Source: a virus
Length of the DNA: 64,000 nucleotides
Direction: 5' to 3' (one strand)
Virus record (IMG/VR): IMGVR_UViG_3300035698_022074
Location: 1 to 64,000 of that record
Made by a program: the position numbers and the translations under genes. Shown piece by piece: positions 43,226-46,121 of this stretch. The notes beneath the pieces are model-generated. The model saw nothing but the letters and a program-made list of their open reading frames with translations, did no database searches and was not told where the DNA came from. The stretch's first letter is position 1. Each line of letters begins with the position of its first letter.

Positions 43226-44190
43226 AAGCTGCTAAGCGCGCACTAATTACAGGTATCGCGGGTCAAGACGGTTCTTATCTTGCAGAGCATCTGCTCGAAA
43301 TGGGATATGAAGTTCACGGTCTTGTAAGGCACTCGACAACAGAGAGTGAGTATGTCAACATTGAGCACATACTTGACAAGATAACATTGATCCAAGGCGA
43401 TTTGACAGACTTTAGTCATGTCTGCTCCACCATCCAACGGGTCCGACCACATGAGATTTACAATCTTGCAGCACAATCTCATGTTGGAAAATCATTCGAG
43501 ATGCCTCACTTTACAGCCGCCGTCACAGCGCAGGGTGCCCTTAACATTCTCGAATCAGTAAGAATATCAAATTTCAATTCAAAAGTGTACCAAGCGTCAA
43601 CATCAGAGCTGTTTGGAAACTCTATTGAAGTTCCTCAAAATGAAGACACACCGTTTAATCCCAGATCACCTTATGCAGTTAGTAAGCTTTTTGCACATCA
43701 CATGGTGAAAACCTATAGAGAAGCTTACAACATGTTCGCATGTTCTGGAATACTTTTCAACCATGAATCCCCAAGAAGAGGCGGAGACTTTGTTACTAGA
43801 AAAGTCTGTAAAGCAGCAGTAAAAATTGCTAATGGCGACCAACATGTTCTTGAACTCGGAAACCTTGAGGCACGTAGAGACTGGGGGCACGCAAAAGATT
43901 TTGTCAGAGGAATGCACATGATGTTGCAACATCATGAACCAAGAGACTTTGTGTTATCAACTGGACAAACAAGATCTGTAAGAGATTTAGTAGAAGTTGC
44001 GTTTAAGATTGCAGGTGTTGAAGACTATGAAGATAAGATAATCATAAATCCTAAGTTTTTTAGACCAGCTGAAGTTAATACATTGATAGGAAGCTATACT
44101 CTTGCAGAAAAAGAATTAGGATGGAAACCTGAGATCACTTTTGAAGAAATGATCGAAGAAATGATCGAGCTTGAATGGGAGAATTTGTGA
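43222..44190 (+). CDS. gmd: GDP-mannose 4,6-dehydratase
   Basis: ALITGIAGQDGSYLAEHLLEMGYEVHG…IYNLAAQSHVGKSFE is near-identical to Gmd signatures. TTG start with RBS ggagg. Confidence 0.85.
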   Translation: MKAAKRALITGIAGQDGSYLAEHLLEMGYEVHGLVRHSTTESEYVNIEHILDKITLIQGDLTDFSHVCSTIQRVRPHEIYNLAAQSHVGKSFEMPHFTAAVTAQGALNILESVRISNFNSKVYQASTSELFGNSIEVPQNEDTPFNPRSPYAVSKLFAHHMVKTYREAYNMFACSGILFNHESPRRGGDFVTRKVCKAAVKIANGDQHVLELGNLEARRDWGHAKDFVRGMHMMLQHHEPRDFVLSTGQTRSVRDLVEVAFKIAGVEDYEDKIIINPKFFRPAEVNTLIGSYTLAEKELGWKPEITFEEMIEEMIELEWENL

Positions 44191-44927
44191 AAAACAAAGA
44201 AGATACAATAGGTGTAATTGGCCAAGGGTTTGTAGGTGGTAGCCTAGCTACAGTGTTTTTAGAACGTGGTTTTAACGTTTTTGCATTTGATAAAGGAAAT
44301 AACTATCTAAAGCCTCATAGGCGATACGCTCACCAGCAGTCTGTTCACGAATTAGTTCAAACGCTTGAAAGAGCACAGTCTAAAATCTACTTTGTTTGTG
44401 TCCCAACGCCAATGAGAAAAGATGGCTCAGCAGACATAAGAATAGTTGAATCTGTACTTGATGAGCTTTCAGAAATTCCAGGAGATAGGATCGCAGTAGT
44501 AAAGTCAACGATACCACCTGGAACAACAAAGATCTGGAATACCAAGTACAGAAGTTCAGGCCTGACAGTTGTCTTTAATCCTGAATTCTTGACAGAGGCA
44601 AACGCTATCGACGATATGCGAGAACAGAACAGGATTATTATTGGTGGTCCTCGTCCAGCATCAACAATAGTTAAGCGAGTATTCTCAGCAGCTTTTCCTA
44701 ATGTCACAATAGTAAAAACAGGTTCAACAGAAGCAGAGTTTGTCAAATACTTCACTAATTGCTTCCTTGCAACTAAGGTATCATTTGCAAATGAAATGAA
44801 GCAGATATGTGATGCTATCAACATTGACTATGATAAAGTTGTTGAGTATACACTTCATGATGAGAGGATCGGTGATACACATTTGACAGTACCTGGTCCA
44901 GATGGTTCGCTAGGATTCGGCGGTCAT

Positions 44928-45935
44928 TGCGTTCCTGGTGATTCATTAATTTCTGCAATGTACCTATCTTACGTCATACCAGGAAGCAATGGAGCTGATA
45001 TTACTGATCGTGATATCCATGATGTATATGAAGGTAAGGTTACAATCGAAGCGCTATATGAACTTTTTCATTCAATGCCGCCAAAAGACTACTTTAAAAT
45101 AAAGAGCGCCAATCCAGGCTGTAAAAGCCTTACCAGGGGCGGGAAGCGAGTATCTGATGTCACTCGCAATGATTTTGAAGGTGAGCTTATTGTATTTGAC
45201 ATCGGACGTCCAGGTGAAAACATACTCTTTAAGTGCACACCTGAACATTTGATGCCTATTAAAAGAGATGGACAACATCTAATTGTCAAAGCTGAGGATG
45301 TCCTAGAAACAGACACATTATTTACAGTTGAGAGTACGGCTCCAAAATTCACTTTGATTTCATCATGACGTTTATAAAGTATGATGCAAGTGGTACTCGT
45401 TTAAGAAGAAGACAGGCGAAACTGTCAAAGTGCAAGGAACGTGGGAGCTCGCATTTGCAACGTGGCTAGATAAACAAGAAATAAACTTTATTGCCCATAG
45501 AGGTACAATTAAATACTTCGATGGGACTAAAAAGCGAGCTTACTTCCCCGACTTTTACCTTACAGATTGGAATGCGTACGTTGAAGTCAAAAACAAATAC
45601 CACTTTAGCATCCAGCGTAAAAAGTTCGACCAGATAACACGAGACAATCCTGAAATCAACTTGATTATGTTGTTCAAGGATGACTTACAAAAACTAGGTG
45701 TACTAATATGAGTCACAATATGACAGAAAATGTAAAGAAATTCAAACAGGTCGCTAGAGAGTCAGATAGACGATTTGAACCTCAGAACGCAGGGCCTATT
45801 AGCGAAACCAAAATCAAAAGTATTACGAGGGAAAAGTTTTCAGGCCAAGTCTACAATCTTGAACTAGTTTCTCAATCGCATACTGAAGATGATCTATTCT
45901 GGGTTGAAGAAAATTCTTGCGTCGTGACTCACAAT
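44928..45935 (+). mobile_element. Intein inserted at the UGDH catalytic cysteine, with a frame-disrupted centre
   Basis: Block A CVPGDSLI at Cys252. Block B TPEHLM. Blocks F/G VYNLELVSQSHTEDDLFWVEENSCVVTHN followed by extein Cys. Frame 0 stops at 45366. The middle is open only in frame +1 (45385-45711). Confidence 0.6.
45385..45711 (+). CDS. PD-(D/E)xK-like ORF inside the intein (frame +1), putative homing-endonuclease remnant
   Basis: …WELAFATWLDKQEINFIAHRG…YFPDFYLTDWNAYVEVKNKY fits a PD…(D/E)xK pattern (PDF…EVK). Confidence 0.35.
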   Translation, partial: CKWYSFKKKTGETVKVQGTWELAFATWLDKQEINFIAHRGTIKYFDGTKKRAYFPDFYLTDWNAYVEVKNKYHFSIQRKKFDQITRDNPEINLIMLFKDDLQKLGVLI

Positions 45936-46121
45936 TGTTTTCCAAAAGACGTCAATGCAATGATTTCTCTTGCTAAATCTCTTGATGTACAACCTCTTGT
46001 CTTACATGCAGTCAATAAAAAGAATGATGAAGTTAGGCCATTCGAAGAAAGAGATTGGTTAAGTATGACAGGTCGAGCAGTGTCAGAAGACTAAAACGCA
46101 GTATAAAGGAAGAAGCAACAG

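Follow-up and report, generated by a model that had tools for sequence, protein, structure and literature searches.

Fractured genes are enzyme genes broken at the insertion point of an intein, a gene for a free-standing endonuclease lying between the two halves; they include gp41-1, NrdJ-1, and IMPDH-1 and are known mainly from phages (Dassa, London, Stoddard, Schueler-Furman & Pietrokovski 2009, NAR 37:2560; PMC2677866). In the published cases the 3′ end of the endonuclease gene overlaps the start of the sequence encoding the C-terminal intein half (IntC), and loss of the endonuclease, step III of the proposed model, was observed once, at the locus gp41-7 (PMC2677866). Members of the EDxHD family (I-Bth0305I; Taylor et al. 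2011) carry an E-D-x-H-D motif that is homologous to Asp51, His69, and Asp97 of Vsr (PMC3239194). UGDH, a member of the UDP-glucose/GDP-mannose dehydrogenase family, has been listed as a host of contiguous inteins, citing Perler 2002 (PMC2874743). Here we analyzed a 64,000-nucleotide (nt) stretch of DNA from an uncultured large tailed phage (positions 1 to 64,000 of the IMG/VR record IMGVR_UViG_3300035698_022074; hereafter the window), in which a UGDH-family gene is interrupted at 44175–46094. A sequence-only reading of this DNA had described a UGDH gene with an intein at the catalytic Cys, a frame-shifted intein center holding a PD-(D/E)xK-like open reading frame (ORF), and a missing host C-terminal domain. 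The evidence makes it highly probable that the locus is a fractured UGDH gene with a natural split class 1 intein and the decaying remnant of a free-standing nuclease gene.

Three separate genes were found on the plus strand at 44175–46094, encoding the N-extein with the N-terminal intein half (IntN), a nuclease remnant, and IntC with the C-extein, respectively. The first ORF (44175–45368, frame 0, 397 residues) consisted of 251 codons of N-extein (44175–44927), ending in ...GFGGH, and 146 codons of IntN (44928–45368), and was closed by a TGA at 45366–45368. The last ORF (45708–46094, also frame 0, 128 residues) consisted of 76 codons of IntC (45708–45935) and 52 codons of C-extein followed by a stop codon (45936–46094). 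Between them, frame +1 was open at 45385–45711, giving 108 codons and a TGA at 45709–45711; a stop codon stood directly upstream of 45385 in this reading frame, and the first canonical start codon was a GTG at 45430, from which 93 residues could be translated. Stop and start codons overlapped as ATGA at both gene junctions (45365–45368 and 45708–45711), and the ATG of the first overlap opened frame +2 in the window, a dead-end ORF of 34 codons (45365–45466). The sequence AGGTG at 45696–45700, 7 nt 5′ of the IntC ATG and within the last nuclease codons (KLGV), resembled a Shine-Dalgarno sequence and may be the ribosome-binding site for IntC. When family profiles constructed without the window were run against all 1,038 six-frame segments of the window, exactly three segments were picked, IntN (E = 4e-24), IntC (E = 4e-19), and the nuclease (E = 3e-44), which was far beyond chance. 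The frame-0 stop, the intein blocks A, B, F, and G, the extein junction, and the nuclease-like ORF in frame +1 were all present as the sequence-only reading had described them; it had missed the ATGA overlaps, the homologous +1 sequence 5′ of the GTG, and an extension of IntC.

The intein began at Cys1 (nt 44928) in the junction GFGGH/CVPGDSLI and ended in the junction ...VVTHN/CFPKD (reading DDLFWVEENSCVVTHN/CFPKD), in which the +1 splicing Cys (nt 45936) was at the same time the active-site Cys of the host enzyme. Block A (CVPGDSLI) and block B (TPEH) were located in IntN, and IntC contained block F as well as block G, which ended in His-Asn (VYNLELVS...DDLFW...VVTHN). The window therefore had the residues of a class 1 intein: C1, T104-P-E-H107, H221-N222, and the +1 Cys. 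Since a word-indexed search with the intein gave only near-identical proteins, other alleles and contiguous forms were collected by exhaustive phmmer searches, and related loci (L numbers) were taken from IMG/VR and from contigs encoding the homologues. In the resulting 11-allele alignment of fused IntN and IntC, Cys1, the T-x-x-H motif, and the terminal H-N were invariant. A phmmer search of the Protein Data Bank (PDB) with the single fused intein sequence gave nothing significant, and the 11-allele profile was needed to detect Mja KlbA (2jmz, 1.6e-13), Pab PolC/PolII (2.1e-9), PI-PkoII (6e-8), and the NrdJ-1 split intein (2e-7). The Pfam scan of the window ORFs gave no intein match, and TIGR01443 (intein_Cterm) scored 14.1 bits on the window, just below its cut-off of 15.6. 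The fused intein of the window was modeled with AlphaFold2; the model had a predicted local distance difference test score (pLDDT) of 82.7 and a predicted template modeling score of 0.79, and its sole long stretch of low confidence was at the split point. With this model as the query, the top 39 Foldseek matches in the PDB were all inteins, bacterial intein-like (BIL) domains, or Hedgehog Hint domains (best 6.5e-8). The sequence motifs and the model thus pointed to a genuine class 1 intein with a Hint fold, inserted exactly before the catalytic Cys.

The host protein belonged to the UGDH family. The N-extein contained the NAD-binding domain (PF03721, 4.5e-27) and the first two thirds or so of the central domain (PF00984, 1.2e-19), the latter match ending at profile position 68 of 94, and it covered positions 2–269 of TIGR03026; the C-extein, which started with the catalytic Cys in CFPKD and ended in RDW...GRAVSED, matched PF00984 at positions 60–93 of 94 and so completed the central domain. 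When residue 251 was spliced in silico to the +1 Cys (nt 45936), a protein of 303 residues resulted, which matched TIGR03026 continuously over positions 2–295 of 413 with 217.6 bits (cut-off, 189.8); the N-terminal ORF alone scored 191.3 bits. Among 5.8 billion proteins searched, there were more than 100 uninterrupted homologues of 300–320 residues, 58–67% identical over 96–99% of the query and with PF03721 and PF00984 only. Among the 120 best homologues of the spliced protein, 118 were uninterrupted, with neither intein nor nuclease. The alignment of the spliced protein with the uninterrupted homologues was gap-free through G-GG-x-C-F-x-K-D (junction GGH/CFPKD) to a shared C-terminus, RDW...GRAVSE(D/E), and, together with the profiles, it bore out the earlier reading that the gene is of the UGDH family and that the intein lies at the catalytic Cys.

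Of the three domains that define the UDP-glucose/GDP-mannose dehydrogenase family (NAD-binding domain, central domain with the catalytic Cys, and PF03720), the host had the first two only. The C-terminal UDP-binding domain PF03720 was found neither in the window host nor in the subfamily of about 300 residues, and none was seen adjoining the gene. The earlier count of 52 residues after the active-site Cys was correct; the conclusion drawn from it, that the host C-terminal domain was lost or truncated, did not survive, because the uninterrupted homologues without PF03720 were collinear with the spliced protein to both ends. The absence of PF03720 is thus a trait of the subfamily, which is large and for the most part viral or metagenomic. 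This short UGDH-like subfamily was abundant in metagenomic and viral contigs; in databases of cultured phages, its closest relatives reached about 30% identity at best. The same intein type, in a nuclease-free split form, was also seen in a more distant member of the UGDH family (L008 at 3152–4885, and L011, L012, and L014); the L008 host carried PF03720 (5.6e-5) and had the active-site context CHPRD.

The succession of frames 0, +1, and 0 is the pattern expected if one continuous intein with an in-frame endonuclease had been broken by two compensating indel errors, and in-frame fusions of IntN and nuclease do exist elsewhere (P0266, described below). However, the same frame structure was found in three independent assemblies, the window, L003 (JGI 3300039191), and L004 (JGI 3300012271). 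In the other loci, IntN, the nuclease, and IntC were encoded by separate ORFs, each with its own start and stop codons, the nuclease start being ATG; the spacing between the IntN and nuclease ORFs varied from −98 to +55 nt, and in L005, L006, and L007 the two exteins were in different frames. Overlaps such as the ATGA seen at the two junctions are typical of coupled genes. The nuclease frame has a stop codon directly upstream of 45385, and no correction of indels could restore the missing N-terminal part of the nuclease (about 146 profile positions, see below). A sequencing or assembly artefact is therefore a negligible prospect, and the shared structure in three assemblies together with the separate ORFs elsewhere excluded the pair of assembly indels that the sequence-only reading had offered as one explanation. 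Its description of the intein center as frame-shifted did not hold either, the same three-ORF layout being present in at least 10 diverse viral loci. A corrected sequence giving one continuous intein ORF with a LAGLIDADG or HNH domain and a full-length C-extein, which that reading had named as grounds for its refutation, will not be obtained, though for a reason different from the one envisaged. The split layout was kept in many lineages whose exteins were only 28–69% identical to those of the window, and this comparison of loci indicated that the intein is naturally split. Programmed −1 frameshifting from the frame of the ATG at 45365 into the nuclease frame at T-TTA-AGA was also considered and was rejected; the slippery heptamer was poor, and homologous loci use ordinary separate ORFs.

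The middle ORF (45385–45711) encoded ...QGTWELAF...YFPDF...VEVK..., that is, only the catalytic domain of a PD-(D/E)xK nuclease, with the E of TWEL, the D of FPDF, and the E and K of EVK. The sequence in frame +1 that precedes the GTG at 45430 (CKWYSFKKKTGETVKVQG) was still homologous coding sequence. The ORF aligned to positions 147–253 of the 254-position family profile from which the window row had been left out (about 107 positions; E = 3e-44). Because the frame started right after a stop codon at an invariant KW, about 146 N-terminal profile positions have been deleted. A full-length gene of 235–272 codons was found between the same intein halves in L005, L006, L007, L009, L010, L015/L016, L017, L019, L020–L022, and L023–L025. 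In these proteins the N-terminal half, which presumably binds DNA, had CxxC...CxxC(W) pairs and repeated GxxNGMK/NUMOD3-like helices, and the C-terminal domain had the pattern (C/S)KW...K(V/L)QGTWEL...H(R/K)GRI.Y...YYPDF...(V/I)D(V/I)K. The family consisted of 233 clusters at 90% identity, nearly all of 250–270 residues and all unnamed; the N-terminal half was present in every cluster, and the catalytic residues E21, P55-D56, (D/E)67, and K69 were invariant. Homologues of 362–421 residues were considered as fusions of nuclease and IntC, which was rejected; they had expanded N-terminal repeats instead.

The window remnant matched Pfam DUF7487 (PF24308), a family without a described function, with 31.1 bits (cut-off, 27) over profile positions 131–206 of 220, and this match and the E...PD...(D/E)xK site supported the earlier assignment of the central ORF as PD-(D/E)xK-like. 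Pfam matches to T7 endonuclease I (PF05367, 21.5 bits) and TnsA (PF08722, 18.6 bits) were below their cut-offs of 29.1 and 26.5, respectively. The catalytic residues of T7 endonuclease I are E20, D55, E65, and K67, and the nuclease family profile matched the structure of this enzyme (1m0d) with 2.6e-6, PDF and (D/E)xK being aligned. The family profile gave no sequence match to Vsr or 3r3p at E ≤ 10, and the likeness to these was at the level of the fold only. In the cultured-phage databases, the closest relatives of the nuclease had at most 30% identity over most of the length.

All family members whose context was examined (about 13 loci) lay between the halves of a split intein in the UGDH family. 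This sporadic, target-linked distribution was like that of a homing element, and the full-length protein is probably a homing endonuclease. In P0266, a related IntN continued in frame into a related module of Cys-rich and nuclease domains (hhalign probability 97%, E = 5e-11). This protein (592 residues) and P0255 (321 residues) had the IntN-nuclease fusion C-terminal to an RNase-H-like exonuclease domain, with no IntC in the same ORF; such fusions may show how an endonuclease becomes integrated into a split intein at another stage or in another mode. L006 had a second nuclease gene of the free-standing type (255 residues) at 1375–2142, directly upstream of the fractured UGDH gene, and its product combined a C2H2-like zinc finger with two NUMOD3 motifs (5.6e-19) and a PD-(D/E)xK domain resembling that of TnsA (...YVPDF...EEVKG). 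Its position suggests that glycan islands are hotspots for mobile nucleases of this kind.

The state of the remnant was assessed by comparing the window with the haplotype shared by L003 and L004, which was 99.4% identical to it across 8.4 kb (8,381 nt). Of the 48 columns that differed, 14 fell in the 346-nt nuclease region (odds ratio 9.9, Fisher p = 4e-9), and none of the six gap openings lay outside it; the haplotypes diverged by about 4% there compared with 0.42% elsewhere, a roughly tenfold difference. The gap openings were confined to a patch at 45392–45411, with a net difference of 5 nt, and a 1-nt indel at 45526. Outside the nuclease region there were substitutions only, 18 synonymous and 15 nonsynonymous, and the DNA coding for the exteins and the intein (1.58 kb) had no indel or stop codon across the three assemblies. 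The window kept the ancestral nuclease frame over all 108 codons, without an ATG. In L003 and L004, derived indels at 45392–45411 put the nuclease domain into the frame opened by the ATG of the first ATGA overlap, but there was also a 1-nt deletion at 45526, 5′ of the PD motif. Since this haplotype came from two separate metagenomes, its frameshift was not an assembly error. An independent and deeper 5′ truncation was found in L018, in which about 72 codons remained, with no start codon and without the first catalytic Glu. The confinement of the indels to the remnant and the tenfold divergence indicated that the remnant is decaying, and it is probably inactive.

A truncated nuclease that still works as a minimal PD-(D/E)xK enzyme of about 93–108 residues, possibly a dimer like T7 endonuclease I, would explain why E, PD, and ExK were all intact in an open ancestral frame and why the AlphaFold2 model of the remnant was compact (pLDDT 96.6). 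Such an enzyme could be made by initiation at the GTG at 45430 or by translation coupled to that of IntN, and could be kept for homing or, for example, for competition among phages; small homing enzymes of the PD-(D/E)xK type are known, such as I-Ssp6803I endonuclease (cited in PMC2677866). We consider this unlikely, because the remnant lacked the whole N-terminal half found in all 233 clusters and had no ATG, and because a start at the GTG would cut off the first two predicted beta-strands. The frameshift in the middle of the gene in two independent samples of the sister haplotype, the concentration of divergence and indels in the remnant, and the separate truncation in L018 also argue against a working enzyme and in favor of a decaying one. 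Thus, of the earlier suggestion that both an intein and a homing endonuclease were decaying, the part concerning the nuclease stood, and the part concerning the intein did not: the splicing residues were invariant, and there were no indels between the haplotypes in the intein and extein DNA. The alternative suggestion of a free-standing nuclease nested in a mini-intein was right as to a free-standing nuclease, of which the window copy is only a 5′-truncated remnant.

Other loci provided the neighboring states. Contiguous mini-intein alleles from metagenomes were present at the same site in P0250, P0256, and P0270, and no nuclease was found in L001/L002 or in L008/L011/L012/L014, in which the IntN and IntC ORFs overlapped by 26 nt or were 30 nt apart. 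These alleles can be arranged, by sequence comparison, as a series of mini-intein, intact fractured gene, truncated nuclease (the window), short remnant, and nuclease-free split intein, and the nuclease-free split of the L001/L002 and L008 type corresponds to step III of the model of Dassa et al. (PMC2677866).

It could also be supposed that the whole locus is dead, with a non-splicing intein, a lost UGDH-like function, and all three ORFs drifting. The unusual extensions at the split point would fit this: IntN had 13 residues (VESTAPKFTLISS) past the usual ...ETDxLF end, and IntC had an N-terminal extension of about 30 residues (MSHNMTENVKKFKQVARESDRRFEPQNAGPISE; 45708–45806) that had no counterpart in the other 10 alleles and was modeled at low confidence except for one helix. 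It would also account for nearly equal nonsynonymous and synonymous counts in the N-terminal ORF and for an enzyme without a UDP-binding domain. However, C1, TxxH, HN, the +1 Cys, and the active-site motif of the host were all intact, the extein and intein DNA was free of the indels and stops that would be expected of drift like that in the nuclease region, the split arrangement persisted among distantly related exteins, and the flanking glycan genes were intact and syntenic across related loci. A dead locus is thus very improbable, and a functional fractured gene with a decaying nuclease remnant is preferred. Several observations nevertheless weigh against this preference. Between the haplotypes, the ORFs for UGDH and the intein had 4 nonsynonymous and 4 synonymous substitutions, too few to show purifying selection alone, and the IntC and IntN extensions might hinder the pairing of the halves. 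A scan of the locus for promoters and terminators gave no sites above the level of shuffled sequences. As the UDP-binding domain is absent from the short UGDH family, any substrate and activity assigned to it are putative. Finally, the frame of the remnant was open, none of the four catalytic residues was missing, and the fold was predicted with confidence, so a product started at the GTG at 45430 might retain some activity. IntN and IntC were also compared for the complementary charges that have been reported in other split inteins, and no consistent pattern emerged.

According to the proposed mechanism, two polypeptides would be made, the N-extein-IntN protein of 397 residues and an IntC-C-extein protein of 128 residues, or 124 if translation starts at the second Met. 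The intein halves would associate and splice in trans, joining ...GFGGH to CFPKD... and giving the complete 303-residue enzyme. The DNA between the halves was presumably once a full homing-endonuclease gene of about 255 codons, whose product would have spread the element by cutting alleles without it. In the window genome, about 60% of this gene has been deleted from the 5′ side, leaving the remnant without an ATG. The 3′ end was probably retained for its overlap with the IntC start codon and for the putative ribosome-binding site of IntC that it contains. In 11 loci the nuclease stop codon was between −8 and +2 nt from the IntC ATG, the window having the 4-nt ATGA overlap, and this closeness, with the AGGTG of the window, may be the reason why the 5′ end was lost and the 3′ end kept in both truncations, that of the window and that of L018.

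A broader proposal, whose prospects we judge to be evenly balanced, is that DUF7487-type proteins of about 255 residues are an unrecognized lineage of homing endonucleases that specializes in invading the endonuclease-insertion loop of mini-inteins and so has created widespread split inteins in viral nucleotide-sugar dehydrogenase genes. Fractured genes would thereby extend beyond DNA metabolism for the first time, with every stage of the cycle preserved in metagenomes. The locus extends the phenomenon of fractured genes from DNA replication and repair to an enzyme of glycan biosynthesis, and it makes a T7-endonuclease-I/TnsA-like PD-(D/E)xK family a candidate new homing-endonuclease lineage with a testable target. 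The natural allele series documents loss of the endonuclease gene while the split intein persists, a step on the proposed path to split inteins that are unlinked, such as DnaE. Protein ligation gains new candidate tools in the split inteins of UGDH (IntN of about 100–146 residues, IntC of about 42–50 residues, +1 context CFPKD). For annotation, such loci should not be labeled as frameshifted or truncated pseudogenes.

Further genes of the window were observed around this locus. Two genes 3′ of UGDH, at 47065–47919, a gene for a PDDEXK_1/Cas4-like exonuclease was found (PHROG exonuclease, 1.8e-20), and its synteny was conserved in L001 (5916–6770), L004 (5346–6200), and L020 (5481–6308), an odd companion in a glycan island. 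Signs of a tailed phage included a baseplate wedge gene (54177–56024) and a helicase gene (28963–30588). A complete trio of DUF444/YeaH-like (1e-113), SpoVR (4e-121), and PrkA AAA-kinase (6e-137) genes was located at 19904–24417, a virus-borne operon of bacterial type that is associated with stress or sporulation. An ORF of 895 residues at 3979–6666 matched the Major Vault Protein shoulder (PF11978, 1.4e-26) and a vault repeat (PF17795, 2e-10) and had no PHROG match, and a single ORF of 475 residues at 31947–33374 had PIN_4 (7e-26) fused to PhoH (9.5e-55).

A literature search found nothing on a split UGDH intein, on DUF7487, or on an intein-associated endonuclease of the canonical PD-(D/E)xK type, which is weak evidence given that most subscription journals were outside its coverage. 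When the locus was compared with known systems, the mechanism was the known one of fractured genes, and the host class and the candidate homing-endonuclease lineage were new. As in contiguous UGDH inteins (PMC2874743), the host was of the UGDH family, and the three contiguous mini-inteins occupied the window site; unlike those inteins, that of the window was split into two genes, with a nuclease that was free-standing and not nested. T7 endonuclease I and Tn7 TnsA differ from the window family in being a Holliday-junction resolvase and a transposase subunit, respectively, neither of them intein-associated, and the window family adds a Cys-rich N-terminal module of about 150 residues. In contrast to the EDxHD and Vsr-like enzymes (PMC3239194), the family had an invariant E...PD...(D/E)xK site with a catalytic Lys and no Vsr-type set of residues. 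The UGDH-locus endonuclease was like the known endonucleases of fractured genes in fold and modular architecture and belonged to a different family, being neither GIY-YIG nor Vsr-like (PMC2677866). The window shared with the published fractured genes (PMC2677866) two ORFs on the same strand with IntN and IntC ends, a nuclease gene between them, and a 3′ overlap with the IntC start, and the NrdJ-1 intein was a relative detectable by both sequence and structure. It differed from them in that the host was a nucleotide-sugar dehydrogenase in a glycan-biosynthesis island and not an enzyme of DNA synthesis or repair, and in that the nuclease gene was partly deleted, a condition between the intact and the lost states.

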